Shown: positions 6,066-29,744, counted from the first letter of the stretch. The stretch is 43,857 bases of DNA from an uncultured Acidimicrobiia bacterium (GCA_937890445.1 CALACD010000469.1:1-43857); one strand, 5' to 3'. Notes: generated from the letters alone by a model not told the origin. Numbers and translations are program-made.

Positions 6066-7451
6066 CTACGAGACGGGTGCGTTGGCAAGTGCGACCCAGG
6101 CGCCATGCCCGCCGATGATGTCGGAAACGTCGCTGAACCCGTGGCGTCGAAGCAGACTGGCCCCGACCGACGAACGATAACCGCCGGCGCAGAAGACGAC
6201 GGTTGGTCGAGCGGGATCGAGTTCTCCGTGCCGCTGCGCCAACTGCCCGACCGGGATGGACTGGGCGGCGTCGATGGTTCCGAGGGCGAACTCGCCGGGG
6301 TTGCGGATATCGACCAGCTGCAATCCGTCGACGTCGTCACGACGACTCCGGAACTCGGTCACGGTCATGCGAGAAGCGCGTCGCACGCGAGCGGGATTGG
6401 CTGCCATGATCGCCAGCGGGTTCTCCAGGTATCCGACCACTCGATCGAAGCCGATGCGTCCGAGGCGATTCTTGGCTTCCAGCTCGGATCCTTCGTCGAC
6501 CACCAACACGATGTCAATGTCGTCGGGCACGATCGACCCTGCGAACTCGGCATACCGGCCGTTCAATCCCACGTTGACCGAGCCGTCGAGATGTCCGAGG
6601 GCGAACTCCTCTGGGGTTCGGCCGTCGATGATCATGGCCCCGAGGCCGACCAACTCGTCGACGCGGGCCAGATCGAGCGCAGTTGGCATCTCGGTCTCGT
6701 CCAGAAGCTCCCGGTCCTGACGGTTGAGGGCGGCATTGAACGCGAAATAGCCGGGTGCCGGAGGCTGGCCTTCGGTCACGAGACCGATGAACGTCGACTT
6801 GTCCGGTGCCAGGAGCGCATAGTTGTTGAGCCGCTGCTCGCCGATGGTGGACACGGTGTCGGTCGAGAGGTTCTTGCCACAAGCCGACCCGGCACCGTGC
6901 GCCGGGTACACCCGAGTCACGTCGGGCAGCGACAGGAGTTGGGTGTGCAGGCTGTCGTACAGTTGATCGGCCAGCTCGTCCCGACTCACTCCGACCGACG
7001 CCAGGAGGTCGGGCCGACCCACATCGCCGATGAAGAGGGTGTCGCCCGTCAAGACGCCATAGGGGGTGTCGTCGTCAGCATGTTCCCAGACCACGATGCT
7101 GATCGATTCGGGCGTGTGCCCGGGGGTGTGGCGGATCTCCAACTGCACCTCGCCCAACGAGATGCGTTCGCCGTCGGCCAGTTTACGCGACGGGAACTCG
7201 GTGCTGGCGACAGCCGAGTAGCCGATCTCGGCACCCGTCGCCGCCGCCATCTCGAGGTGACCCGACAGGAAGTCGGCGTGGAAGTGGGTCTCGAGCACGA
7301 GTTCGATGGTGAGCCCGGCCGCTTCGGCATCGCGCAGATACTCCTCCACATCGCGACGGGGGTCGACCACGACAGCCCGCCCCGTGGATTCGTCGCCGAT
7401 CAGGTACGACGCCTGCGAGAGGCAATCGAGGTAGTACTGGGTGAAAATCAT
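6066..7451 (-). CDS. Persulfide dioxygenase (MBL fold, ETHE1-like) fused to two rhodanese domains (CstB-like)
   Basis: ORF 6066..7466. The metallo-beta-lactamase motif is LETHFHADFLSGH, followed by two rhodanese-like domains; the last has the catalytic loop VVFCAGGYRSS. The start is placed at ATG 7451 (MIFTQYYLD...), preceded by GAAGGAAG as a ribosome-binding site. Confidence 0.85.
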   Translation of the reverse strand: MIFTQYYLDCLSQASYLIGDESTGRAVVVDPRRDVEEYLRDAEAAGLTIELVLETHFHADFLSGHLEMAAATGAEIGYSAVASTEFPSRKLADGERISLGEVQLEIRHTPGHTPESISIVVWEHADDDTPYGVLTGDTLFIGDVGRPDLLASVGVSRDELADQLYDSLHTQLLSLPDVTRVYPAHGAGSACGKNLSTDTVSTIGEQRLNNYALLAPDKSTFIGLVTEGQPPAPGYFAFNAALNRQDRELLDETEMPTALDLARVDELVGLGAMIIDGRTPEEFALGHLDGSVNVGLNGRYAEFAGSIVPDDIDIVLVVDEGSELEAKNRLGRIGFDRVVGYLENPLAIMAANPARVRRASRMTVTEFRSRRDDVDGLQLVDIRNPGEFALGTIDAAQSIPVGQLAQRHGELDPARPTVVFCAGGYRSSVGASLLRRHGFSDVSDIIGGHGAWVALANAPVS

Positions 7452-7554
7452 GTCTTCTTCCTTCACCTACCGGGAGCCGAGGTGTCGGCCAAACGTGGAC
7501 CTTTATACGAATATACGTACATTTGTCTCGAAAGGCAACCGTTTCCTCGTCGTC

Positions 7555-8757
7555 TCAGGCCCTGCCCTTCAGCATCAGGTTCCAATACATGAAGGGGAGC
7601 CCGTACTTCTTGAGGTACCACATGTCCCGCCGGGGCTTCTGGGCGTCGATGAACGCGGGAAACGACGGCGCCGGCCGCAGCGAGTAGTCGAATTCGGCCA
7701 GCAGCATGGCATGCCGGGACGTGGTGAGAGGGCACGACGCATAACCGTCGTACTCGGCGGAGGGAGCCCTCCCCGAAAGCTGTTGCATGACGTTGAACGC
7801 CACAACCGGAGCCTGCTTGCGGATGGCGGCCCCGGTCTTGGAATTCGGTGTCGATCCAGCATCGCCCAGAGCGAAGACGTTGGGGTGACGAACGTGTTGG
7901 TGAGTGTGCTTGTCGACGTCGACGTAACGGGCTGCGGTGTCGTTGGCCAACGGACTGGACTTCACCCAATCCGGGGCGGATTGGTGCGGGACCACGTGCA
8001 TCATGTCGTAGGACAATTCGAATCCCGGTCCGTCCTCGGCCATCGAGGTGAAACTTGCTGTCCGGGCATCCGGGTCGACGGACGAGAGTTCGGACGAGAA
8101 GTGGACCTGGATGCCGTAGTCGGCCACGACCTCGTCGAGGGCATCGGAGAACTCCTTCACGCCGAACATTCCCGGGGTCGGAAGAACGAGATGGACATCG
8201 ATGCTGTCCAGCACTCCCTGGGAGCGCCAGTAGTCGGCAGCCAGATAGGCGATCTTCTGCGGCGCGCCGGCGCATTTGATGGGGCCGCTCGGCATGGTGA
8301 AGACGGCCACGCCGGAACGAGTTCCCTGGATGAACTCCCACGTCTTGGGGGCGAGTTCGTAGGTGTAGTTCGACGAAACACCACCGATGCCCAAGGTGTC
8401 GCTGACTCCCGGGATCTTGTTCCAATCGAGTTGGATCCCCGGACAGACCACGAGCACGTCGTAGCCAATCGTGGCTCCACCCACGGTGACCACCTGGTTG
8501 TCGTCGGGAGCGAATTCGATGACGGCATCCTTGACCCAGGTGACACCCTTGGGGATCACCGACGACTCGGCCCGCTGACTGGTCTCACGTTTGGCGCAAC
8601 CGCCACCAACCAGGGTCCACAATGGCTGGTAGTAGTGCTTGTCCGACGGGTCGATGACGGCGACGTCGTCGACCTTGCCCTCGAGTCGAGCGGCGACCGA
8701 GATGCCGGCAGAGCCTCCGCCGACGATGACGACGTCGTGGTGTGCGGTCGTGGCCAT
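7555..8757 (-). CDS. sqr: Type II sulfide:quinone oxidoreductase (SQRDL-like flavoprotein)
   Basis: ORF 7555..8829. The FAD fingerprint is HHDVVIVGGGSAG, and the SQR type II redox-cysteine regions are GPIKCAGAPQKI and YDGYASCPLTT. The start is placed at ATG 8757 (MATTAHHDVV), preceded by AAGGGG. Confidence 0.85.
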   Translation of the reverse strand: MATTAHHDVVIVGGGSAGISVAARLEGKVDDVAVIDPSDKHYYQPLWTLVGGGCAKRETSQRAESSVIPKGVTWVKDAVIEFAPDDNQVVTVGGATIGYDVLVVCPGIQLDWNKIPGVSDTLGIGGVSSNYTYELAPKTWEFIQGTRSGVAVFTMPSGPIKCAGAPQKIAYLAADYWRSQGVLDSIDVHLVLPTPGMFGVKEFSDALDEVVADYGIQVHFSSELSSVDPDARTASFTSMAEDGPGFELSYDMMHVVPHQSAPDWVKSSPLANDTAARYVDVDKHTHQHVRHPNVFALGDAGSTPNSKTGAAIRKQAPVVAFNVMQQLSGRAPSAEYDGYASCPLTTSRHAMLLAEFDYSLRPAPSFPAFIDAQKPRRDMWYLKKYGLPFMYWNLMLKGRA

Positions 8758-8843
8758 GGAGAACCCCCTTGGTTCGGTGAGGTCGGTCTGTCGCAGATTC
8801 CGCACGAGATCGAGCGTGACCAACGACACCTCTAGATCTGCCT

Positions 8844-8872
8844 AATGTACGGTCTTTCGGATAATCGGTCAA
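8844..8872 (-). promoter_or_regulatory. Candidate sigma-70-type promoter for sqr: TTGACC - 17 nt - TACATT
   Basis: The minus strand reads gcTTGACCgattatccgaaagaccgTACATTaggcAGATCTAGAgg. The spacing was counted by hand. A TCTAGA-centred near-palindrome (8829-8840) lies just downstream of the -10 element. Confidence 0.45.
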
Positions 8873-8924
8873 GCACCCTGTCCGCTCGGCATCGGCGCAA
8901 CGACCGCAACCACGCCCGCCTCGA

Positions 8925-9683
8925 TCAGTCCGCCGTCGGCCGCAGTTCGCTACGAGTCCCGGCCGACCAGTCGGTCACGAACCGATACCGATCGCCCCGA
9001 ATGATCGTGGTCCGCCACTCGATGGGACGCTGATCCCGGCAACCGAGACGCTCGAGGAAGAACGCAGCGTCCGACTTCTGCAGACCGAGCATGGCTCGAT
9101 CCGCCGATGACGGAACGATGGGGGTCAAACGCTCCCAACCCTGATTGGGCACCGGTGCCCCGGCCTTGGCGAGTTCTGCGTAGAGCGCCGTGTGGGACCA
9201 ATCGACATCCAGCAGCGTCGAGGCGAACTCGTGGGGCAACCAGGCCCGGTCGACAGCCAGTGGCACGCCGCCCGCAAGACGAAGCCGCTCCACCAGAACC
9301 AGTTGCGCCTCTTCGGGAATGCCCAGCTGAGCAGCCGCAAGACGATCGGTCGTCACCTCGAGGCGCAGGATCTCGCTCGTCTGCTCGACCCCGGCCGACT
9401 CGACGGACTGGAACAAGCTGTAGAGCGTTCCCAGCGATTGCTCGAACTCCGCTCGGTTCACCACCGTACCCCGGCCCCGCTCCCGCTTGAGCACTCCGGT
9501 CTTGTTCAGATGCCGGACAGCCTCGCGCACCGTGTGTCGGCTGACCTTGTAGGCCTCGGTCAGTTCGAGATCGGTCGGAAAACTCTCGGCAAACTCGTTG
9601 GCCTCGAGCCGAGTCCTCAGATCGGCTTCGAGTTGTGCCCACAACGGCATGGGACTGTTGCGATCCAGGGGCGTCAACGCCAT
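8925..9683 (-). CDS. GntR-family transcriptional regulator, HutC subfamily (winged HTH plus UTRA domain)
   Basis: ORF 8925..9863. The region PLWAQLEADLRTRLEANEF...PTDLELTEAYKVSRHTVREAVRHLNKTGVLKRERGRGTVV is a typical GntR wHTH, and the C-terminus is UTRA-like. The start is placed at ATG 9683, preceded by AGGAG. Confidence 0.85.
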   Translation of the reverse strand: MALTPLDRNSPMPLWAQLEADLRTRLEANEFAESFPTDLELTEAYKVSRHTVREAVRHLNKTGVLKRERGRGTVVNRAEFEQSLGTLYSLFQSVESAGVEQTSEILRLEVTTDRLAAAQLGIPEEAQLVLVERLRLAGGVPLAVDRAWLPHEFASTLLDVDWSHTALYAELAKAGAPVPNQGWERLTPIVPSSADRAMLGLQKSDAAFFLERLGCRDQRPIEWRTTIIRGDRYRFVTDWSAGTRSELRPTAD

Positions 9684-9765
9684 GTACTCCTGCCGTTCTC
9701 CGCACGTTGCGTCGGGGCCCTTCGACCCTCGAAGCGCTCGATCGTAGCAGCACTGCGAACCGACG

Positions 9766-9798
9766 TTGTCGTTTCTCCGTTTGTCCGTACAATTGGAC
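9766..9798 (+). promoter_or_regulatory. Candidate promoter (TTGTCG - 16 nt - TACAAT) for the rhodanese lipoprotein operon, overlapped by the inverted repeat GTCC-N8-GGAC
   Basis: This is an AT-rich island in the divergent 9684-9893 intergenic region. The -10 element is at 9788-9793, and the GTCC/GGAC arms are at 9783-9786 and 9795-9798. Confidence 0.35.
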
Positions 9799-9893
9799 GA
9801 TGGGTCATCTCTACCTCTTCGCCCTGGCCAACCGAGCGCCGAACCAACCAACGACCAACCCACACAACCCGTAGCAAGGACCGAACCAAGACC

Positions 9894-10370
9894 ATGAAAC
9901 GACTCCTCCTCACCTTGACGGCCACGACGGCCTTCGTGATCGCCGGCTGTGGCAGCGACACTCGATCAGCCACGGCCCCCACCGCTGCTGCAACATCCGA
10001 CTCCCCACCGTCGGACACGAACGAGGGTTCGCAGACCGACACGGGAGTCCGCCTGGTCTCATCGACCGAAGCCGCCGCCATCGTGGCCTCGCCGCCCGAC
10101 GATCTGGTCATCCTGGATGTCCGGACTCCCGAGGAATTCGCCGAAGGACATCTCGACCGTGCTCAGCTGATCGACTTCTACCAGGCCGACTTCGCCCAAC
10201 AGCTCGCTGACCTCGACCCGTCCGTGCCCTACGTTCTCTACTGCCGGTCCGGCAACCGGAGCGGGCAAGCCGCCGACATGATGCGCGAACTCGGCTTCGT
10301 CGACGTCGTCGACGTCGACGGCGGCATTCTGGCCTGGAGCGACGCTGGCCTCCCGGTGGTGACACCGTGA
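9894..10370 (+). CDS. Rhodanese-domain lipoprotein (sulfurtransferase)
   Basis: This is the C-terminal part of ORF 9192..10370. The signal peptide with lipobox reads MKRLLLTLTATTAFVIAGC, and the rhodanese active-site loop is LYCRSGNRS. Confidence 0.8.
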   Translation: MKRLLLTLTATTAFVIAGCGSDTRSATAPTAAATSDSPPSDTNEGSQTDTGVRLVSSTEAAAIVASPPDDLVILDVRTPEEFAEGHLDRAQLIDFYQADFAQQLADLDPSVPYVLYCRSGNRSGQAADMMRELGFVDVVDVDGGILAWSDAGLPVVTP

Positions 10371-10993
10371 GCTCACAACAGCCAGCGCCGACTCCGGCCC
10401 AGGCATGGGAGGGTCGCTATGCAGACATCGACGACTATCTCTATGGCACCGAGCCGAACGACTTCCTCGTGACCGCCAGCGCCGACCTCCCCATCGGCGA
10501 TGCTCTCTGTCTGGCCGATGGCGAAGGCCGTAACGGCGTCTACCTGGCCCAACGGGGGCACCGCGTGACCTCGGTCGACCTCACGGTGTCGGGAATGGCC
10601 AAGGCCGATCGACTGGCCGAGCTCCGCGGCGTCGAGGTGACAACCGTCGTGGCAGACCTCTCCGACTACGACCTGGGGGAGAACCGATGGGACCTGATCG
10701 TGTCGATCTTCGCTCACACTCCACCCCCGATTCGCCGGCGCGTCCACGGATCGATCGCACGTGCACTTCGCCCCGGCGGCCGGTTCGTTCTCGAGGCCTA
10801 CACGCCCGATCAAATCGGTCGAGGCACCGGCGGACCACCGGTTCCGGAACTGACCATGACATTGTCCGGGCTACGAACCGAACTCACCGGGCTCTCGTTC
10901 GAATCGGGACTCGAGACCCTGCGAGCGGTCGTCGAGGGCAGGGGACACACCGGCGAGGGTGCCGTCGTCCAAGTCGTGGCCACCAAGCCCTGA
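10367..10993 (+). CDS. Class I SAM-dependent methyltransferase (TehB-like size and layout)
   Basis: ORF 10367..10993. The SAM-binding motif I region is ALCLADGEGRNGVYLAQRGHRVTSVDL. The GTG start overlaps the upstream stop codon (GTGA). Confidence 0.75.
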   Translation: MSSQQPAPTPAQAWEGRYADIDDYLYGTEPNDFLVTASADLPIGDALCLADGEGRNGVYLAQRGHRVTSVDLTVSGMAKADRLAELRGVEVTTVVADLSDYDLGENRWDLIVSIFAHTPPPIRRRVHGSIARALRPGGRFVLEAYTPDQIGRGTGGPPVPELTMTLSGLRTELTGLSFESGLETLRAVVEGRGHTGEGAVVQVVATKP

Positions 10994-11014
10994 CCACCGT
11001 TCGTCTCGCCACCG

Positions 11015-11467
11015 TCATCGGGCGGGACAGGACACCTCGATCGCATCGATCGGGCGGAACTCGTCGTCAGTCCGGCCGTCCTTCCACATCAGGACCGCGA
11101 ACCGGGCATCGTCGTCCAGCACCGTGAGGCCGTGGTGCCAGACGCCTCGGGCGATGGTCACCCCTCGGCCAGGTCCGACCTCGAAGGCCTTCACCCCCGT
11201 GGCATTGCACGTCAGCGAGACGATGACGATCCAGCGCCGCACCTCGAGAGGAAGGAAGGTCTGGCTGGAGTGGGGATGACGCTCCAGCTCCCGAACGACG
11301 ACCGGCTCTTCGACCCGCCGGGCATGTGTCGTCGACAACACCACCGGGCGGTTCGGATCGAACGACAGGCCCCCGGTCGGGGACCGGCCCCCGACCTCGT
11401 CGGGAGCAGTGATGAGCTGACCGAACGGCGCAAAGGCACTCGCCGTGATCGGAAGGGCCGTGACCAT
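11015..11467 (-). CDS. allA: Ureidoglycolate lyase
   Basis: This is the C-terminal 150 aa of ORF 11015..12067 (MVTALPITASAFAPFGQLI...HPHSSQTFLPL...WHHGL). The ATG at 11467 overlaps the puuE stop codon (TGATG). Confidence 0.8.
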   Translation of the reverse strand: MVTALPITASAFAPFGQLITAPDEVGGRSPTGGLSFDPNRPVVLSTTHARRVEEPVVVRELERHPHSSQTFLPLEVRRWIVIVSLTCNATGVKAFEVGPGRGVTIARGVWHHGLTVLDDDARFAVLMWKDGRTDDEFRPIDAIEVSCPAR

Positions 11468-16736: not shown

Positions 16737-17606
16737 TCACGGCATCCGACCCAGGAACTCGAGCACGGCAGTGGTGAAGGCATCGTTGTCGTCGCCGGCC
16801 ACCATGTGGCCGGTATTGGCGACGTCGAGATACTCCGCCGTCGGAACGCGGTCCAGGAACAACTGCACCGACTCGGCCGTGACCAGATCGGACCTGCCTC
16901 CCCGGACCAAGAGCACGGGGCGCCCCGCTCGGCGCGCTCCGTCGAGCATGATCTCGCTGACTCGCTCCATGCTCTGGCGCATCACCTCGTGGTCACCGGT
17001 CACGAATCCCGGTTTGGACGAGATGTAGTCGGGGTCCCACCGCCACCGCCATCGCCCGTCAGGACCTTCTCGCAGCACCTTGGTCAGACCACCCAGATCC
17101 TTGGGGCGAGGTCGATTCGGGTTGTAGGCCGCCATGGCATCGGATGCTTCCTCGAGGGTGGCGAAACCGTCGGGGTTCCCGGCCATCCAGGTCACGATTC
17201 TGGTCGCGCCCTCCACCGCGAAATTCGGCGCGATGTCGACCAGCACGACGGCCCGGTACAGCGGCACCTCGCTGGCGTACTGGGCCGCGAGCGCCGCCAT
17301 CCCACCCATCGACGCACCGATCACGACCGGCTCCTGATCGAACCGATCGAGCAGAGCCAGGACATCTGCACCCATGTGCTCGACATCATAGCGAGCCTCC
17401 TGCGACCAGTCGCTGTCACCGTGCCCGCGAGCGTCCACCGTCAGCACCGACCAGCCCTGCTCGGCCAACACCGCAGCGGTGGCCCGCCACGCGTGGCGGT
17501 TCTGGCCCGCGCCGTGCAGCATCAACACCGGCGGCCCGCCGGCTGGCCCCCACTCGTCGGCGATCAGGGTGAGGCCGTCGGTTCCGGGACACGAGATCGT
17601 CTGCAC
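16737..17606 (-). CDS. Alpha/beta-fold hydrolase (paralog of 18618..19499)
   Basis: ORF 16737..17606. It contains the HGxGQxRHAW region, DARGHGDSDW, the nucleophile elbow GASMGG, and a C-terminal His in TGHMVAGD. Confidence 0.85.
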   Translation of the reverse strand: MQTISCPGTDGLTLIADEWGPAGGPPVLMLHGAGQNRHAWRATAAVLAEQGWSVLTVDARGHGDSDWSQEARYDVEHMGADVLALLDRFDQEPVVIGASMGGMAALAAQYASEVPLYRAVVLVDIAPNFAVEGATRIVTWMAGNPDGFATLEEASDAMAAYNPNRPRPKDLGGLTKVLREGPDGRWRWRWDPDYISSKPGFVTGDHEVMRQSMERVSEIMLDGARRAGRPVLLVRGGRSDLVTAESVQLFLDRVPTAEYLDVANTGHMVAGDDNDAFTTAVLEFLGRMP

Positions 17607-17697
17607 CGAACCGATGGTAGGTGTCGAACGACGTCAACCCGAATCTGACCGCACCAGGCGAACCACGTACGCTCTGGCCATCCACGAGGAGACCAGC

Positions 17698-18615
17698 ATG
17701 ACCGAGACCAAGCGAACCCATCGCTCCCACGTGAGCTACATCGACAAGTCACGCGAGTTCTACGCCGCCCACGGCTACGAACAGCCCTACCACTGGGCGG
17801 CCCACGACGACGCACCGTTCACGGCGCTGCCCAAGCCGCTGTTCGAGTGCAAGGTAGGTGTTGTCACCACGTCCTACTTCTTGCCCGACGACTTCGTCTA
17901 CCGGGTTCCCTCCGATCTGCCTCGTCTGCCCTACGTCGCCTCCCGCCACGACACCGCCCGACTGGACAACCAGTACCTGTCCTGGGCGAAGGACGAGACC
18001 CACACCCGTGACCGGGAGAGCTATCTGCCCCTGGCCCGCCTCGACGAGTACGTGACCCAAGGCCGCATCGGCGCCGTGTCCGATCGCTTCTACGGCCTGC
18101 CGACCCAGTTCAGTCATCGCCAGACGCAACGGCGCGACACCCCGAGAGTCCTCGAATGGATGAAGGAGGACGAGGTCGATGTCGCCCTGCTGGTTCCGCT
18201 TTGACCCGTGTGTCACCAGTCCGTGAGCCTGGGAGCACGTCAGATCGAAGAAGCCGGCATCCCCACCGTGGTGATCGGCTCGGCCCGAGACATCGTCGAG
18301 GAGTGCGGGGTGCCGCGTTTCGTGTTCGTCGACTTCCCGCTCGGAAATCCGTGTGGCAAGCCCGACGAGGTCGCCATGCAACACTCGATCGTGGGCCTTG
18401 CCCTCGACTCCCTCGAGAAGGCGTTCGCACCCCGCACCACGGTGCAGGCACCGGTCCGATGGGACGACGTCGACCCCGACGGTTGGCGGGAACGATTCAT
18501 GCACGTCGGCGATGACAATCGACAGCTCCTGGCTGATGCCGGAGCCGAGCGGAAGCGTCTCCAGGAGGAGATCCGCCAGCGGGACACCTCCACCGAACCA
18601 GACCGGGAAGGCTGA
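17698..18615 (+). CDS. Glycine/betaine/sarcosine/D-proline reductase selenoprotein-B family (PrdB/GrdB-like) protein with an in-frame UGA (predicted Sec at codon 169)
   Basis: ORFs 17479..18204 and 18208..18615 are in the same frame and are separated only by TGA 18202-18204 plus one CCC codon. The joined translation reads ...EDEVDVALLVPL-U-PVCHQSVSLGARQIEEAGIPTVVIG..., which gives a U-x-x-C-H motif. The start is placed at ATG 17698, preceded by GAGGAG. Confidence 0.75.
18208..18240 (+). other. Candidate bacterial SECIS-like hairpin, starting 4 nt 3' of the UGA
   Basis: Hand-folded. The lower stem pairs 18208-18213 with 18235-18240 (G-U, U-G, G-C, U-A, G-C, U-G). A 2x2 internal loop follows. 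The upper stem pairs CCAG (18216-18219) with CUGG (18229-18232). The 9-nt apical loop is UCCGUGAGC and contains GU. No energy calculation was done. Confidence 0.4.
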
Positions 18616-18617
18616 GC

Positions 18618-19499
18618 ATGGCATCACGAGGCGAGCGACTCGAAGGAACACCCGAACCAGACCTGATGATCGAGGCCGCCGGGGGTGTGCGCGTCGCGGC
18701 CGATGTCTTCGGCCATGGCGGCCCGCTCGTCTTGCTCCAACATGGAGGCGGCCAGACCCGTCACGCCTGGAAGGGAGCCGGACAACAGCTGGCGAGCGCC
18801 GGCTACCGAGCCGTCAGCATCGACGCCCGGGGTCACGGCGACAGTGACTGGGCACCCGACGGCGACTACACGACCGAGGCCTTGGTTGCCGATCTGGTCG
18901 CCGTGGTCGACCATTTCGGTGAGATCCCGGTGTTGGTCGGGGCATCGATGGGCGGGGGCACCTCGCTGACCGCGGTCGGCGAGGGTGAGGTCGAGGCCGC
19001 TGCCCTGGTGCTGGTCGACACCGCGCCCCGGATCGAGGCCGGCGGTGTCCGCAAGATCCGGGACTTCATGAGCCAGGCTCCCGATGGGTTCGCAACCCTC
19101 GAAGAAGTGGCGGATGCCATCGCCAACTACCAGCCACATCGCGACCGACCCCGCAAGCTCGACGGACTGGCCAAGAACGTGCGCCTCTGGCCCGATGGCC
19201 GATATCGGTGGCATTGGGACCCTGCGTTCATGCAGCGCCCGAAGGCAGCACTGGCCGATCGGATCCCACGCCAGGAGGCAGCGGCCGCCAACCTGACGCT
19301 GCCGACGCTGCTGGTTCGCGGCGGTCTCAGCGATGTCCTGTCCGAGGAAGGGGCACGATCCTTCCTGGATCAGGTGCCGCACGCGGTCTACGCCAATGTC
19401 AGTGACGCGGCCCACATGGTGGCCGGGGATCGCAACGACATCTTCATCAACTCGGTCCTCGAGTTTCTCCAGGCGAATCACCCTGGCAAAGGGGCCTGA
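18618..19499 (+). CDS. Alpha/beta-fold hydrolase (paralog of 16737..17606)
   Basis: ORF 18618..19499. The ATG lies 2 nt after the stop codon of the PrdB-like gene. It shares these motifs with the paralog: HGGGQTRHAW, DARGHGDSDW, GASMGG, PDGFATLEE and AAHMVAGD. Confidence 0.85.
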   Translation: MASRGERLEGTPEPDLMIEAAGGVRVAADVFGHGGPLVLLQHGGGQTRHAWKGAGQQLASAGYRAVSIDARGHGDSDWAPDGDYTTEALVADLVAVVDHFGEIPVLVGASMGGGTSLTAVGEGEVEAAALVLVDTAPRIEAGGVRKIRDFMSQAPDGFATLEEVADAIANYQPHRDRPRKLDGLAKNVRLWPDGRYRWHWDPAFMQRPKAALADRIPRQEAAAANLTLPTLLVRGGLSDVLSEEGARSFLDQVPHAVYANVSDAAHMVAGDRNDIFINSVLEFLQANHPGKGA

Positions 19500-19558: not shown

Positions 19559-21679
19559 ATGATGTCCAGGCGGACCAAGACTGCGTTTTTGCTCGTTGTC
19601 GCCCTCTTGACGGCTCTCAACTCGACGAGCCCGGCCAGTGCGGAACTGTCGTCGACCCCCACCACCTCGTGGGGGGTCAGTGGACTGCTGACCGGCACCC
19701 AGACCGATGGCATCAAGGCCAACGTGTTCGCCATGGAGATCATCGGCAACACGCTGTACGTCGGGGGTCGATTCACCACGGTCACCAACGGCAACACGTC
19801 CCAGAGCAGACCGGCCATCGCTGCCTTCAACGCCACCACCGGCAGCTGGATCAGCAGCTTCGCGCCAACACTCGACGGCGCCGTCTATGCCCTCCAGGCC
19901 TCGCCCGACGGCACCCGACTGTTCGTCGGTGGCGACTTCACCACGACCAACGGCACCCCGACCGGACCGCTTGTCGCCTTGAATCCCACGACCGGGGCCA
20001 TCTCCAGCGGCTGGACGGGCGCCGTCGGCGGCTATCAGGTCGTTCGTGACTTCGATGTCGACGGCACCTACCTCTATGCCGGTGGCGGATTCACATCGAT
20101 GAGCAGCGCGGCCGGGGGAACGAGTGCGTTCCGCACCGCTCGATTCACCCTCGCCAACGGAACCCACGACGCCACATGGAAGCCCAACATCGCGGGCGGA
20201 ACCGTCTGGGGAATCGACGTCTCGGCGGCATCCGGTCGGGTCTACTTCGCCGGCAACTTCGACACCATCAACGGTGAGGCTCGACCGGGTGGCTTCGGCG
20301 CGGTCAGTGCCACCACCGCCACCAACGTCGCCGGCACCCTGTCGGTCAATACGACCAACGTGAGCCAACAGTTCGCCTACGACGTTCTCGAAGTGGGCAA
20401 CAAGGTCTTCGTCGCCGGCAGCCAGCATCACCTGCAGGTGTTGAACCAGAGCAACCTGTCACTCGAGGTGTTCCATCGTTCGAGCCCTCGCGGTGATTTC
20501 CAGACCGTGGCTCAGATCGGCAGTCGGGTGTATGCCGGTTCGCATTCCTATCAGGGCACCACCCTGGCCAGTGCCAGCGGTGTGCTCTGGGTCGGCCCGC
20601 CACCGGCCGGTCAATCCGACGCCCCGATCTTTGCCTCCAACCCGAGTTCCTGGGTCAGTGCCTTCAACGCATCGACCGGACTCCACGACACCGCCTTCTA
20701 CGCCAACCTGGCCACGGCCGGGGCCGGCATCTGGGCCGTCGAGGCCACCAGCAATGGTTGCGTCTGGTTCGGAGGCGCCATCACCGCTGCGGCCGGGGTC
20801 CCCCAGTTCGGGATCACCCGACTGTGCGATGGCCTGCCACCCGACACCGAGCGCCCGTCCGTGCCCAGCCGACCCCAGGTCGCCGCCCTGCGATCCGGCG
20901 AGGTCGACCTGACCTGGACGGCCTCCACCGACAACGTCGGCGTCGTCGGCTACCGGCTCTACAACCAGTCGAACGACACACTCGTCACCGACGTCAGCGG
21001 CACAGCAACCACCCTCAGCCTCCCCACCGGCCCCTACGAGATGTACCTCCGAGCCTACGACGCAGCCGGCAACGTCTCGTGGCGAACCGGACCCACCTCC
21101 TTCACCATCGGGGTGGTCGACACCGAGCGGCCGAGCTTTCCCAGCCGACCCCAGGTCGCCGCCCTGCGATCCGGCGAGGTCGACCTGACCTGGACGGCCT
21201 CCACCGACAACGTCGGCGTCGTCGGCTACCGGCTCTACAACCAGTCGAACGACACACTCGTCACCGACGTCAGCGGCACAGCAACCACCCTCAGCCTCCC
21301 CACCGGCCCCTACGAGATGTACCTCCGAGCCTACGACGCAGCCGGCAACGTCTCGTGGCGAACCGGACCCACCTCCTTCACCATCTCCGACAATGTCGAC
21401 ACCGAAGCTCCCACCACACCGACCGGGCTCAACGGATCGGTGTCGGGCTCGACCATCACCATGTGGTGGGGTGAGTCGACCGACAACATCGGGGTGGCCG
21501 GCTATCGCCTCTTCAACGCCAGCAACGACCTGCCCATCGCCGCTGGTACGGGCCGGTACACCCAACTCATGGGACTTGCTCCCGGCCCCTATAGTTACTA
21601 CGTCAAGGCCTTCGATGCCGCTGGCAACGAATCGTTCCGCACCGACATCCTCACCCTCACCGTGAACCAGCAGAACTGA
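19559..21679 (+). CDS. Secreted protein: signal peptide, beta-propeller-type repeats (DUF5122/delta-60-like LYVGGxFTxxNG units) and three C-terminal fibronectin type III domains
   Basis: ORF 19559..21679. The signal peptide is MMSRRTKTAFLLVVALLTALNSTSPASA. The motif (L/V)Y(V/A/F)(G/A)GxF(T/D)...G recurs roughly every 50-60 aa. The three FN3-like units have the form ...VDLTWTASTDNVGVVGYRLYN... Confidence 0.8.
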   Translation: MMSRRTKTAFLLVVALLTALNSTSPASAELSSTPTTSWGVSGLLTGTQTDGIKANVFAMEIIGNTLYVGGRFTTVTNGNTSQSRPAIAAFNATTGSWISSFAPTLDGAVYALQASPDGTRLFVGGDFTTTNGTPTGPLVALNPTTGAISSGWTGAVGGYQVVRDFDVDGTYLYAGGGFTSMSSAAGGTSAFRTARFTLANGTHDATWKPNIAGGTVWGIDVSAASGRVYFAGNFDTINGEARPGGFGAVSATTATNVAGTLSVNTTNVSQQFAYDVLEVGNKVFVAGSQHHLQVLNQSNLSLEVFHRSSPRGDFQTVAQIGSRVYAGSHSYQGTTLASASGVLWVGPPPAGQSDAPIFASNPSSWVSAFNASTGLHDTAFYANLATAGAGIWAVEATSNGCVWFGGAITAAAGVPQFGITRLCDGLPPDTERPSVPSRPQVAALRSGEVDLTWTASTDNVGVVGYRLYNQSNDTLVTDVSGTATTLSLPTGPYEMYLRAYDAAGNVSWRTGPTSFTIGVVDTERPSFPSRPQVAALRSGEVDLTWTASTDNVGVVGYRLYNQSNDTLVTDVSGTATTLSLPTGPYEMYLRAYDAAGNVSWRTGPTSFTISDNVDTEAPTTPTGLNGSVSGSTITMWWGESTDNIGVAGYRLFNASNDLPIAAGTGRYTQLMGLAPGPYSYYVKAFDAAGNESFRTDILTLTVNQQN
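20843..21394 (+). repeat. In-gene tandem duplication with a 276-bp (92-codon) period, encoding two FN3 domains; 20864-21109 and 21140-21385 are identical by eye (246 bp)
   Basis: Compared directly, base by base. The differences are confined to about 10 nt at 20854-20863 versus 21130-21139. The third FN3 unit (about 21386-21670) is diverged. Confidence 0.9.
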
Positions 21680-25071: not shown

Positions 25072-28000
25072 TCAGGAAGCACGAAGTGCCGCGGTGGCGG
25101 CGTCGTCGATCGAGTTGCCCACGATCACCACCCCGTAGACGTCGGCCGCTGCGGTGACGCTGACGATCCCGTCCCGGACATCTCGCAAGACCCGTTCCGG
25201 TTCCCGCTGGCGGGGGTCTCCCCATCCGCCGCCGCCCGGCGTGTGGGCGATCATCCGGGCCGGTCCCTGCCGACGCACCCCGTACTTGGGCGGTACGAAG
25301 CGAGGACCATCGGCCTCGACATCGACGGGTTCGATCCATTCCTCCCCCACGATGCCGTCGCCTCCGCCCATCACGCCGTAGCCCGACGGGGTGTCGAGTC
25401 CCTCGGCCCGGAACGACCACGCAGCCGGCCGAAGGACATCAGCCTCGTACACCACACCGCTACCGCCACGACGAGCACCTGGACCCGCAGCATCGGTCCG
25501 GAACTCCCAGCGCTGGTAGCGCACCGGATAGTTCTGTTCGTGGAACTCCAGATTGGCGATGTCGAGGCCTCCGAGCGAAATGAGATGCCCCATCTGGTTG
25601 AAACCATCCCGCTCCGCGGTCGCGCCCGGCGTACCCATTGCATGCCAGTGGTACATCACCCAGGTTCGGCCGTCGTCGCCGGTGCCCGTCACATGACCGT
25701 GCATGGTCTTGGACCAACCGGCAAGCGCCCGGGACGGATCGGCCGCAGCCAGCGCCTTCCACGTGGCATGGACGATCTCATGGGCCACGAAGACGGTGTT
25801 CATCGTCATCGGCGCCGGGGGCAAGGCGTTCACGATCGTGCCCTCGGGGGCAATGATGCGACACCCCCGGTACGTACCTTCGTTGCGGGGAATGGCAGGA
25901 TCGAAGAACGCTGACAGCGCCAGATAGGCGGCCGAGTAGGTGTTGGCCAACGATGAGTTCTTGAAGCCCTTCATCTGCGGATCGGACTCGCTGAAGTCAA
26001 GGATCATCTCGTCACCGGCGACCGTCAATCGCACCCGGATCCAGGTATCGATCTTCTCGAAGCAATCGTTGTCGGAGAGGTCGGCCCCCTCGTACACCCC
26101 GTCGGGCAACGCCGCCACCGCCTCTCGCATGCGCCGATCGGCGTGGTCGAGGATGCCTCCGAGGTGGGCGAAGTACGAGTCGAGCCCCAGCTCGGTCGCC
26201 AAGGCCGACACTCGCTGGCCACCGATCTCGGTCGAACCGACCATGGCCAGCAGGTCACCGTCGAGCAGCTCCGGGGTGCGAGAGTTGATGAGCAGCATTT
26301 GCCAGACGTCGTCGCGGACCTGACCTCGGTCATACAACTTCATCACCGGCAACCGGATGCCCTCCTGCCAGATCTCGGTCGCTTCGGGGTTGTAGGTACC
26401 GGCCAGTCCCCCGCCGATATCGGACTGGTGGGCCCGATTGCAACAGAACCCGGCCAGTCGCCATCCGTTGTTCGGGTCGGCGGGATCGACCTCGACCCCA
26501 TCGGTCGGTGGAAGAAAGATCGGCCGGCTGATGACCCAGTCGGGCAGGTGATTTCCACCGGCCACGTAGGGGTCGGACAGGATGAAGACATCCTCGGGAT
26601 GGATCCGGCCAGCCCATCGGGCGACGATGGCGCGAGCCGCGAACCCACCACCGCTGGTGTGGATCGGGATCCCGTCGGCGTTGGCAATCAGCGTGCCGGC
26701 CGGGTCAGTGATGAAACACGAGAAGTCATGACTCTGACTGAAGATGGTCGAGCGGGCCGTACGTGTCATGACCCAACCCATGTGCCGGCTGATCTGATCC
26801 AGGCGGTGTTGCATCAGCGACAGCACGACCGGATCCAGCTCGCTGGTCTCGCTGGTCTCGTGCTCGGTGACGAGCGACGTGACGGGCATCGAGTCGCGGG
26901 CCCCGGTGTCGAGCACGAAATTGCCGGACGTGTCGACCGAGAGCAGGGTTCCCGGTCCGACCAGAACCGTGGTGGTCAGCTCCTCGACCAGCATCGGACC
27001 TTCGATCCGCATCCCTGTCTGCAGGCTCGCACCGCCGAACACCGGGGTGTCGAGCCAGCCGTGGGCTCCGTGCCACACCTTGCGACTCTCGATCGGGCGG
27101 GGAACCTCGGCCGACAACGCATGGTCGACCTCGGCCAACTCGCCCGGTGAAGCCAGGGCGACGACCCGGGCCGACGAGATCAGGATCGTGCCCTGCTCCT
27201 GCACGTGTCCGTACATCCGCTGGTACTCGAGTTCGAAGGCGGCGCGAATGGCCGCCGGGTCGAAGTCACCTGCGCTTCCGGGTACCTCGATCTTGATGGA
27301 CCACAGCTGCCCGGGATGGTGGAGATCGAGCTCGGTACGCAGGACCAGCTCGTCGGAACCGAATCCCTCGGCTTCCATGGCCGCGATGGCCTGACGTTCG
27401 AGATCGGCCAACGCGGCCTGCACGTCGGCTCCCGCCACTTCGTCGAGCGAACCCTTGAGGAACCGTTGGAAGTCCTGCCGGACGTCGGCATGGAGCATCC
27501 CGACTGCGCACAGCGCTCCAGCGTCTCGGGGGATGTAGACATTGGGACATCCCAGTCCCCGGGCAACGGTCTCGCCGTGCATTGGACCGGCGCCGCCCGC
27601 CGCCACCAAGGTGAATCGGTCCGGCGCGTGACCTCGCTCGATCGAAATGTACTCGACGGCGCCCAGGAGATTCTGTTCCAGGAGCGTGATGATGCCGGCC
27701 GCTGCATCCTCGATGGAGAGGCCGAGAGGCTCGGCGACACGAGATCGGATCGCTTCTCTCGCTGCCTCCAGATCCAGGTCGATGGAGCCACCGGCGTACG
27801 GGCCGGGCCGGAGTCGTCCGAGAACCAGTTGGGCATCGGTCACGGTGGGTTCGGTTCCACCCAGGCCGTAACAGGCCGGGCCCGGATCGGCCCCCGCCCC
27901 CTGTGGGCCGACGAACAGCAGGCCGGCGGAGTCGACACCGGCGATCGTTCCGCCACCGGCCCCAATGGTGTGGATGTCGATGGCCGGCGTCGAGACGTGA

Positions 28001-29022
28001 TAGCCGGCGATCTGGAGGTCGTCTCGGGTGGCGACCTGCCCCCCCGACATCAGCAGGACATCGCACGACGTCCCGCCGATCTCCATCGAGATCAGGTTGC
28101 CGTCGTTGTCGACGTTCGCGGCGTCACCGGGGTCTCCCGACGATGCCAGGGCCTGGACCCCGACTCGATACCGATTGAGCGCACCCACCGCGGCAGCCGG
28201 CCCGCTCAGCAGGAGATTGACGGGGCGGGGCCCGATGGTCTCGACCGAGGCCGCCCCGCCGTTGCTCTGCACCATCAGAAGAGGTCGGGCCAGGCCGAGC
28301 CGAGCCAGCTCGGCGTCGAGGGCTTGAAGGTAGTCGACGATCCGGGGTGACAGGGTGGCGTTCACCACTGCGGTCGACGTTCGCTCGTACTCCCCCATCG
28401 TCGGGCTGATGTGGGCCGAGCGGGTGATCCAGTCGCCGTCCCAGCGCTCGCGGACCCGCTCCTCGACGGCCACTTCGTGGTGATCGTCGAGAAAGCTGTT
28501 GAACAGGGCGATCGCGATCGCTTCGACTCCTTCGGTCTCGAACACCTCGAGGGCAGCGTCGATGTCGTCGGTCGACAGCGGTGCGATCTCGTGGCCCTCG
28601 GCATCGACGCGACCACCGACCCCCAGACGCAGATACCGCGGTACCAGGACGGGGGCATACGGCTCACGGTGGTTCCATTGATCTTGGCGCAGGCCCCGTC
28701 GGATCTCGAGCGCATCCCGGAATCCGGCCGTCGTCAGCAACCCGACCGTGGCCCCCTTTCCCTCGAGAATCGTGTTGGTGGCGACCGTGGAGCCGTGCAC
28801 GAAGAGCGCGCAGCCCTGCAGGATGTCGACCGAGGTCGAGTCCAGATCGCGAGCGAGCCGTTCGATGGCGGCCAGTACTCCGCGACTGGGGTCGCTGGGC
28901 ACCGAAGGCACCTTCGCCACCCAGGTCTCGCCATGCTGATCGGCCAGCACCAGATCGGTGAACGTTCCGCCGACATCGACGCCAATGCGCCAAGGGGCGA
29001 CGGGAAAGGTTGCGGTGGTCAT
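25072..29022 (-). CDS. Fused hydantoinase/oxoprolinase: A (HyuA-like) and B (HyuB-like) domains in one 1316-aa polypeptide
   Basis: ORF 25072..29022. The N-terminus RIGVDVGGTFTDLVL is the hydantoinase A ATPase fold. The C-terminal half contains DFSCFITD...GGNHLPD...GGGGWGDP, as in HyuB/oxoprolinase. Confidence 0.9.
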   Translation of the reverse strand: MTTATFPVAPWRIGVDVGGTFTDLVLADQHGETWVAKVPSVPSDPSRGVLAAIERLARDLDSTSVDILQGCALFVHGSTVATNTILEGKGATVGLLTTAGFRDALEIRRGLRQDQWNHREPYAPVLVPRYLRLGVGGRVDAEGHEIAPLSTDDIDAALEVFETEGVEAIAIALFNSFLDDHHEVAVEERVRERWDGDWITRSAHISPTMGEYERTSTAVVNATLSPRIVDYLQALDAELARLGLARPLLMVQSNGGAASVETIGPRPVNLLLSGPAAAVGALNRYRVGVQALASSGDPGDAANVDNDGNLISMEIGGTSCDVLLMSGGQVATRDDLQIAGYHVSTPAIDIHTIGAGGGTIAGVDSAGLLFVGPQGAGADPGPACYGLGGTEPTVTDAQLVLGRLRPGPYAGGSIDLDLEAAREAIRSRVAEPLGLSIEDAAAGIITLLEQNLLGAVEYISIERGHAPDRFTLVAAGGAGPMHGETVARGLGCPNVYIPRDAGALCAVGMLHADVRQDFQRFLKGSLDEVAGADVQAALADLERQAIAAMEAEGFGSDELVLRTELDLHHPGQLWSIKIEVPGSAGDFDPAAIRAAFELEYQRMYGHVQEQGTILISSARVVALASPGELAEVDHALSAEVPRPIESRKVWHGAHGWLDTPVFGGASLQTGMRIEGPMLVEELTTTVLVGPGTLLSVDTSGNFVLDTGARDSMPVTSLVTEHETSETSELDPVVLSLMQHRLDQISRHMGWVMTRTARSTIFSQSHDFSCFITDPAGTLIANADGIPIHTSGGGFAARAIVARWAGRIHPEDVFILSDPYVAGGNHLPDWVISRPIFLPPTDGVEVDPADPNNGWRLAGFCCNRAHQSDIGGGLAGTYNPEATEIWQEGIRLPVMKLYDRGQVRDDVWQMLLINSRTPELLDGDLLAMVGSTEIGGQRVSALATELGLDSYFAHLGGILDHADRRMREAVAALPDGVYEGADLSDNDCFEKIDTWIRVRLTVAGDEMILDFSESDPQMKGFKNSSLANTYSAAYLALSAFFDPAIPRNEGTYRGCRIIAPEGTIVNALPPAPMTMNTVFVAHEIVHATWKALAAADPSRALAGWSKTMHGHVTGTGDDGRTWVMYHWHAMGTPGATAERDGFNQMGHLISLGGLDIANLEFHEQNYPVRYQRWEFRTDAAGPGARRGGSGVVYEADVLRPAAWSFRAEGLDTPSGYGVMGGGDGIVGEEWIEPVDVEADGPRFVPPKYGVRRQGPARMIAHTPGGGGWGDPRQREPERVLRDVRDGIVSVTAAADVYGVVIVGNSIDDAATAALRAS

Positions 29023-29096
29023 GCCGTCCAGCTTGGCCGAATCGGTGAACCGCCGACAAGCGTGTCCTGCGGACCGACCTGTGTCAGGATGCGTCG

Positions 29097-29744
29097 ATGC
29101 CAGCCAGCGATCACCACGGACTCGTTGTCAACGTTGCCCGGGACCACGGTCAGCGGCTGCTCCTGCTCCTGCACGGCTACGGGGCCGACGAACACGATCT
29201 GGCCCCACTGGCCGACATGATCGACCCCGACGGGCACTTCCTCACGTTGTGTCCCCGCGGACCCTTCGACGTCGAATCCGGCACCGGAGCCGCGTGGTAT
29301 CACCGCGATGCCAACGGCGACATCGACCAGGCCAGCTTCTGCGGCGCACTGGTGCTGCTGGATCAACTGGTCGATGCCACGACCGCCCAGACCGGACTCG
29401 ACCCGGCCACGATGGTGGTCATCGGGTTCTCGCAGGGGGCAGCCATGACCTTCGCCCTCGGGTTACGAGACAGCACTCGTCCTCGACCTGCCGCCATCGC
29501 TGGGCTGTCGGGTTCGATTCCCGAACCTCCCTGGCTGGAATACGCCTGGACGGCGTCCGATCTTCCCCCCACCTACGTCCAACACGGTCTGGACGACCAC
29601 GTGGTGCCGATCGATCGGGCGCGCCACACCCGCCAGGTGCTCGAGCGCCACCACCTCGAACTCGAATATCACGAATACAACATGCAACACGAGATCAACG
29701 CACCTTCGTTGACCGATGTACGTCTCTGGCTGGAGCAGCACTGA
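29097..29744 (+). CDS. Phospholipase/carboxylesterase-family alpha/beta hydrolase
   Basis: ORF 29097..29744. It contains LLLLHGYGADEHDL, the nucleophile elbow GFSQGA, and a C-terminal HxI His. Confidence 0.75.
   Translation: MPASDHHGLVVNVARDHGQRLLLLLHGYGADEHDLAPLADMIDPDGHFLTLCPRGPFDVESGTGAAWYHRDANGDIDQASFCGALVLLDQLVDATTAQTGLDPATMVVIGFSQGAAMTFALGLRDSTRPRPAAIAGLSGSIPEPPWLEYAWTASDLPPTYVQHGLDDHVVPIDRARHTRQVLERHHLELEYHEYNMQHEINAPSLTDVRLWLEQH

Follow-up and report, generated by a model that had tools for sequence, protein, structure and literature searches.

The closest described relatives of the gene considered here are the reductase selenoproteins PrdB and GrdB. In real prd loci, prdA and prdB are neighbors and prdC, prdD and prdE lie a short distance away; the annotated genuine prdB genes that were retrieved by tblastn of plasmid records translate as ...TAG-U-GTCHRS...EE[AS]GIPT..., the same clostridial motif that an initial annotation of the present sequence had quoted. 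A 21.7-kb circular record of Terrisporobacter petrolearius annotated as a plasmid, pTPHSE2 (NZ_CP154621.1; L175 1-2925, L176 314-11544), carries prdA, prdB, prdC, prdD, a prdE-like gene, selD-selA-selB and a selenium-associated LysR regulator, and therefore unites the selenocysteine (Sec) machinery and one client enzyme on a single small replicon; eight Terrisporobacter records resemble one another.

PrdB-like proteins have also been recorded in environmental sequence surveys. 'Proline reductase PrdB, UxxC' ranked third in abundance among the selenoprotein families of the Sargasso Sea survey (42 Sec forms, 1 Cys form; Zhang, Fomenko and Gladyshev 2005, PMC1088965), and the GOS survey again has it among the top families, its Sec forms numbering 235 and its Cys forms 110 (Zhang and Gladyshev 2008, PMC2398784); 'proline reductase' selenoproteins are also listed in non-Stickland Deltaproteobacteria (PMC1794560). 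Regarding the host lineage, Ilumatobacter coccineus, I. nonamiensis and Ca. Microthrix parvicella are listed as SelD+/SelA+/SelB+, with 15, 10 and 7 selenoproteins, respectively (Peng et al. 2016, PMC5029168, Tables S1 and S2), and selA/B/C/D are reported in all 84 complete Actinomarina genomes (2026 preprint, bioRxiv 10.64898/2026.04.03.716425). The remark of the initial annotation that selenoproteins are uncommon in such genomes does not apply, since Acidimicrobiales such as Ilumatobacter are recorded with 10-15 of them (PMC5029168).

The gene analysed here lies on a contig of an uncultured Acidimicrobiia bacterium (GCA_937890445.1, CALACD010000469.1:1-43857), the whole 43,857-nucleotide stretch being referred to as the window. 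With a probability of about 0.92, positions 17698-18615 are a single gene, the product of which is a 305-residue selenoprotein belonging to the PrdB/GrdB superfamily, and the UGA is decoded as Sec by way of a downstream hairpin; that the in-frame TGA truly encodes selenocysteine is almost certain, and the gene is a distant relative of prdB.

The gene and its relation to PrdB and GrdB

Read from the sequence, the frame runs on the plus strand from ATG 17698 to the terminal TGA at 18613-18615, and its sole interruption is the TGA at 18202-18204. The ORFs 17479..18204 and 18208..18615, which the initial annotation had joined, are both listed in the same frame, and the read-through peptide (...LLVPL-*-PVCHQSVSLGARQIEEAGIPTVVIGSARD...) matches its quotation exactly. 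ATG 17698, and not GTG 17479, is the start: a Shine-Dalgarno sequence lies 5' of the ATG, the orthologs align from that Met, and a database stub (P0001) is 168 aa long. The G+C richness of third codon positions, described earlier as continuing unchanged across the TGA, was computed as 0.84 before and 0.78 after it, in keeping with that description. The features are collected in Table 1. A 300-codon antisense ORF, at 17749-18651 on the minus strand, overlaps the gene and has an equivalent in 62 related loci; it is an artefact of the high G+C and the conserved sense frame, which naive ORF lists will report. Other same-frame ORF pairs of the window (14051/14999, 21726/22962 and 33939/34929), considered as further selenoprotein candidates, turned out to be ordinary adjacent genes.

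Table 1. Positions of the features in the window, with the evidence for each.
Feature	Position	Strand	Evidence or remark
Shine-Dalgarno-like GAGGAG	17686..17691	+	6 nt 5' of the ATG; apparent in the sequence itself
Complete gene, predicted PrdB-like selenoprotein	17698..18615	+	305 codons (168 + Sec + 136) plus terminal TGA
UGA, almost certainly read as selenocysteine, residue 169	18202..18204	+	Aligned to the invariant Cys of homologs and the Sec of genuine PrdB
Cys172 codon, likely the resolving Cys of U-x-x-C, followed by invariant His173	18211..18213	+	Invariant in alignments A4 and A6
Core SECIS-like hairpin	18216..18232	+	Pair counts with controls, suppressed synonymous variation, specificity to TGA forms
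Possible extended SECIS, with extra 3-bp lower stem	18211..18237	+	MFE fold; weaker than the core
Alpha/beta-hydrolase gene	18618..19499	+	Pfam Abhydrolase_1, E=9e-20; starts 2 nt past the stop of the selenoprotein gene
Alpha/beta-hydrolase gene, divergent, upstream	16737..17606	-	Pfam Abhydrolase_1, E=7e-21; context only
Metallo-beta-lactamase-fold and rhodanese fusion	6066-7466	-	Sulfur-handling cluster
Pyr_redox_2 flavoprotein	7555-8841	-	Sulfur-handling cluster
GntR/UTRA regulator	8925-9965	-	Sulfur-handling cluster

Among 5.8 billion proteins searched, 1314 proved to be relatives; the best 120 of these are described here. Among these 120, 66 are stubs of 167-172 aa, 67-83% identical to the window protein, which end exactly at the position of the TGA; the other 54, which are 46-60% identical, comprise 53 proteins of about 280-311 aa and one 241-aa fragment, and several members of the family have been named PrdB by JGI. 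Automatic annotation thus splits the gene, as had been foreseen, the callers giving ORFs of 168 aa and of 120-135 aa. This systematic halving means that an abundant protein family is mis-annotated in Acidimicrobiia metagenome-assembled genomes, and, given the 66 stubs among the best 120 matches, that the sizes of Acidimicrobiia selenoproteomes are underestimated.

The column occupied by the TGA is the one in which the homologs carry their redox residue. Cys stands there in 16/16 full-length homologs aligned, within an invariant C-P-V-C-H-Q, and in a joint alignment the TGA of the window shares its column with the annotated Sec of the PrdB proteins of P. acidaminophilum and Terrisporobacter, so that the U-P-V-C-H of the window aligns with the U-G-T-C-H of genuine PrdB and the catalytic U-x-x-C is retained. 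Residues C172, H173, R181, E184, G187, I188, T190, P206 and R207 are invariant between the window family and PrdB. The placement of the TGA on the Sec/Cys column of a U-x-x-C-H motif by the initial annotation is therefore confirmed, with Cys in 16 homologs and Sec in two genuine PrdB; a column that was neither Cys nor Sec, which it had named as contrary evidence, was not encountered, nor were relatives with two truly separate genes. A Cys-form homolog with N-C-P-V-C-H-Q was also observed on plasmid p546-2 of Roseomonas haemaphysalidis (L174 4965-7350), tail-to-tail with a gene annotated as protein adenylyltransferase SelO.

For the profile searches, C was substituted for U in the joined product. 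The family that matches best is NCBIfam TIGR04483 (D-proline reductase PrdB), at E=9e-26, residues 39-242 being aligned to positions 18-221 of the 238-position profile; at 90.7 bits, the match falls far short of the equivalog cutoff of 300, which makes this a distant PrdB-like protein and not PrdB or GrdB. The GrdH, GrdB and TIGR01918 models matched more weakly (E=1e-11 to 3e-6) and only over their C-terminal 140 or so positions; TIGR01918, in particular, gave 34.7 bits, below its cutoff of 65.45, and only profile positions 281-424 aligned. PF07355, the Pfam model to which the initial annotation had pointed, gave no match to the joined protein at E<=0.01, and the Pfam scan was empty. Of the earlier assignment to the PrdB/GrdB family, the homology to PrdB stands, with the active-site segment included, and membership does not, the score being below the cutoff and only the C-terminal third of GrdB being alignable.

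One rival reading is that of a genuine selenoprotein subunit of D-proline (or glycine/betaine) reductase, with its PrdA or GrdE partner encoded elsewhere in the genome. In addition to the best family match, the catalytic U-x-x-C-H and many core residues shared with PrdB, together with the JGI names, speak for this reading, but the low TIGR04483 score and the gene neighborhoods speak against it. With real Terrisporobacter queries, tblastn detected no PrdA, PrdC, PrdD or PrdE in the window or in 173 loci, PrdB itself being the only match, and prdA, prdC, prdD and prdE were absent from the 6-10 kb around each of some 170 family members, although they are adjacent in real prd loci. No Gly_reductase-type partner was present in the Pfam-annotated neighborhoods of eight family members, and neither grdA nor grdE was found near the gene in its Pfam-annotated context. 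The family has, moreover, segments of its own, namely a conserved N-terminal V-S-Y-I-D-K-S-R-E (SYIDKSRE), a C-terminal helix, and RFYG.P..YS.R.T in place of the GFMGGGG of PrdB. Finally, natural Cys forms are common, whereas U151C abolishes the Prd activity of C. difficile (PMC11229817). Because of the low scores, the missing Prd partners, the segments of its own and the common natural Cys forms, the protein is considered PrdB-like but outside both PrdB and GrdB; with no PrdA encoded nearby, it is probably not a D-proline reductase, and a genuine reductase subunit is an unlikely reading.

Decoding of the UGA and the downstream hairpin

The candidate recoding signal is a short hairpin of 17 nt, CCAGUC-CGUGA-GCCUGG, with a stem of six pairs and a loop of 5 nt, which begins 11 nt after the UGA; in the window copy, a U.C mismatch occupies the fifth pair, and 5/6 pairs form. 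A lower stem would join 18211-18213 with 18235-18237, with 2-nt internal loops between it and the core, and its pairs (10-36, 11-35 and 12-34) are mostly kept in the ortholog alignment. The single-sequence fold after the UGA is no better than shuffles in the window (z=+1.04); the hairpin came to light only through comparative analysis. Across 67 distinct sequences, pairing holds in 92.7% of cells, compared with 46% at most in slid-partner controls; at three pairs, both partners have changed (CAG...CUG to CAA...UUG, CAC...G to CAU...A, and A-U to U-A), and the covariation score was matched by 0/500 shuffles. Synonymous variation is suppressed as well: the six codons of the hairpin have a third-position entropy of 0.07-0.86 bits, those flanking it 1.44-1.89 bits, and the AGU codon for Ser, a rare one, is close to fixation at the site of its pairing with A.

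The hairpin is, in addition, a property of the TGA forms. All six pairs form in 86/118 distinct TGA forms versus 0/12 distinct Cys forms (Fisher p=7e-7, the Cys set being small), the Cys-encoding homologs specifying nearly the same peptide with other codons, and the mean hairpin energy is -6.7 kcal/mol in the former and -3.6 in the latter. Every TGA form has a G within the first two loop positions, and the genuine prdB genes carry a hairpin 12-14 nt after their own UGA, over homologous codons. RNAalifold recovered only part of the hairpin, at a weak energy of -1.54 kcal/mol, and Rfam gave no match at gathering thresholds over the whole window or at permissive thresholds around the UGA. The 11-nt spacer, the 17-nt stem-loop and the G in the first two loop positions are the geometry of a bacterial SECIS, according to the E. 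coli fdhF minimal SECIS and the bSECISearch criteria. The hairpin may be regarded as a SECIS-like element, to which SelB would bind as in the established bacterial Sec pathway.

Read-through of the UGA otherwise than as Sec, whether by near-cognate insertion of Trp or Cys stimulated by the hairpin or under a reassigned code, is very unlikely. Generic read-through might, in principle, be stimulated by a hairpin lying downstream, and the Sec machinery was not found in the sequence searched: the window contains no selA, selB, selD or tRNA-Sec, the related loci (2.06 Mb) gave no tblastn match to real Terrisporobacter SelA, SelB or SelD, no tRNA-Sec was detected by ARAGORN in the window or the first 80 loci, and tblastn with E. 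coli SelA and SelD queries gave no match in the flanks. Against this stand the hairpin geometry itself and the identity of the column, which is Sec in characterised PrdB and Cys in the homologs. Most genes of the window, that at 17698-18615 included, end in TGA, from which it follows that the code is standard. Related cultured Acidimicrobiales, in turn, have SelA, SelB and SelD (PMC5029168).

The conservation of the codon was followed in 80 loci from species-representative genomes, 54-78% identical to the window protein, which comprise Acidimicrobiales, Ca. Poriferisodalis, Microthrix-labelled bins, MedAcidi-G3 and a small number of bins with the label Alphaproteobacteria or Syntrophaceae. In 80/80 of these, the codon preceding PVCHQ is TGA; in metagenome loci, from a scan seeded with Cys forms, it is TGA in 73/79 and Cys in 6/79. 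The in-frame TGA is far beyond chance, because the same codon stands in the same column in all these genome and TGA-bearing metagenome loci. Chromosomes, complete or nearly so, that carry orthologs include OZ244139.1, OZ220497.1, NZ_OZ241975.1, JAWKIO010000005.1 (5.08 Mb) and CBDHHN010000004.1. In the 80 genome loci, moreover, the true terminators may be TGA, TAG or TAA, but neither TAA nor TAG ever takes the place of the internal TGA. The frame after the TGA stays open for 122-146 codons in 79 of them and for 309 codons in L008. In this last locus (10493-11425), a close ortholog, homology after the UGA stops at about 118 residues and the rest is Arg/Ser/Pro-rich, so that its long frame probably reflects a lost terminator running into non-coding high-GC sequence. 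Identity of the orthologs to the window is 69% after the UGA versus 59% before it, and substitutions at the three codon positions number 372/175/1183, the third being dominant; such a pattern is the signature of a translated frame, and the comparison shows the post-UGA part to be translated and under purifying selection.

These data weigh on the reading of the TGA as a real stop, which would leave either two separate genes or a nonsense-disrupted pseudogene. Gene callers and public databases treat it in this way, and GTG 18208 could in principle start a second ORF. Nevertheless, the reading is highly improbable: over 150 loci, which span a protein divergence of about 50%, have the same TGA in the same column, the downstream part is the more conserved and has third-position-biased substitutions, the homologs have Cys there in one continuous protein, and, according to the structural model, the stop would split a single domain between a strand and the next helix. 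That the TGA is an erroneous reading of TGC, TGT or TGG through sequencing or assembly, for which nothing specific speaks beyond the window being a metagenome-type contig, is effectively excluded because the identical 918-nt gene lies on three other contigs, assembled independently from different samples, which show TGA and not the sense codon that the initial annotation had envisaged as an objection, as do 80/80 species-level orthologs.

TGA forms with the same hairpin were also observed in bins labelled Alphaproteobacteria, Asaia, Reyranella, Syntrophaceae and Smithella (L059, L071, L073, L075 and L078-L080); either the family and its SECIS have moved between phyla or these contigs are mis-binned.

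Structure, possible mechanism and gene context

The closest full-length Cys homolog (P0002, 55% identical) was modelled with AlphaFold2 at a pLDDT of 89 and a pTM of 0.89. In this model the U/C residue lies between a beta-strand and the N-terminus of a helix, and the second Cys follows one turn later in the helix, a predicted placement such as redox-active UxxC pairs usually have. A sequence search of the PDB found no relative, and Foldseek with the same model returned nothing at E<=1e-3, the best TM being 0.29.

By the established bacterial Sec pathway, the complex SelB.GTP.Sec-tRNA(Sec) would bind the mRNA hairpin while the ribosome stands at the UGA, and Sec would be inserted without termination. 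On the precedent of PrdB and from the structural model, Sec169, at the helix N-terminus right after the beta-strand, would act as the nucleophile; Cys172 would then resolve the adduct as a selenenylsulfide, and an external thiol or electron donor would re-reduce the latter and regenerate the enzyme. Most members of the family prefer Sec to Cys, and the established picture of Sec decoding is left unchanged by the findings.

A PrdA-independent reductase, often co-transcribed with an alpha/beta hydrolase, is a more likely identity for the protein than D-proline reductase. In the window, the hydrolase gene that follows is probably co-transcribed with the selenoprotein gene. A downstream alpha/beta hydrolase, at a gap of 1-100 nt, occurs in about 34-44 related loci and is absent from most of the closest relatives of the window; neighborhoods differ between clades, this hydrolase being the only recurrent, though not universal, partner, and in the marine clade the flanking genes are of acyl-CoA-metabolism types. 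As a clue to function, the gene neighborhood is suggestive at most. A broader proposal is put forward tentatively, at somewhat less than even odds: the protein would be no proline reductase subunit but would found a family of stand-alone selenoenzymes independent of PrdA, very widespread both in Acidimicrobiia and in metagenomes from the sea and from soil, which would perform reductive bond cleavage or redox chemistry, possibly together with the hydrolase, and whose fold has no solved representative.

Elsewhere in the window, the sulfur-handling gene cluster at 6066-10370 (Table 1), which also includes a small rhodanese, looks like a persulfide/sulfide detoxification unit. A single 1351-residue ORF at 25072-29127 on the minus strand fuses hydantoinase/oxoprolinase A and B domains. 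On the plus strand, 19559-21679 encodes a 706-residue protein with fn3, Ig-like and beta-propeller matches, the C-terminal part of which resembles the repeat region of the exoglucanase CbhB; this protein is probably secreted or surface-located.

Comparison with known systems

The hairpin shares with the fdhF-type SECIS of E. coli its position in the coding sequence just 3' of the UGA, the 11-nt spacer, the 17-nt element and the G/U of the apical loop; it differs in being unrelated in sequence, in lacking the bulged U and, in the window copy, in having an internal mismatch.

With the PrdB proteins of Clostridioides difficile, Acetoanaerobium sticklandii and Terrisporobacter, the window protein has in common a homologous region of about 200 residues, the same Sec column, the U-x-x-C-H motif and the EE[AS]GIPT helix, as well as an mRNA hairpin at the homologous position after the UGA. 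It is, however, only 27-29% identical to them, far below the family cutoff, and its family has, in addition, a conserved segment of some 38 aa at the N-terminus and a helix of some 55 aa at the C-terminus; its hosts are Acidimicrobiia whereas those of PrdB are Stickland-fermenting Clostridia, and natural Cys forms are frequent in the window family. The relation to GrdB/GrdF/GrdH (TIGR01918, PF07355) is that of the same superfamily, with about 140 C-terminal residues around the Sec alignable, whereas the N-terminal two thirds of GrdB, a protein of about 435 aa, have no counterpart in the window protein, and the GrdB motif is UxxCxxC (review PMC13188914) in contrast to the U-P-V-C-H-Q-S of the window.

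The PrdB family of the marine surveys resembles that of the window in its UxxC, its PrdB homology and the excess of Sec over Cys forms, and the window family itself has marine members, such as L045 (MedAcidi-G3) and L157 (a TARA contig); the window subfamily would thus correspond to the PrdB UxxC subfamily of those surveys. The initial annotation was a correct catch, though not that of a new kind of selenoprotein: a catalogue of this kind from ocean metagenomes dates from 2005, and Sec use is on record for the lineage. Where the two descriptions differ is in the name: the available text of the surveys (PMC1088965, PMC2398784) files these proteins simply as PrdB, without discussing the missing PrdA. 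As far as that text goes, a family among the commonest marine selenoproteins is labelled 'proline reductase' by homology alone, and, given the consistent absence of PrdA, this label is probably wrong.
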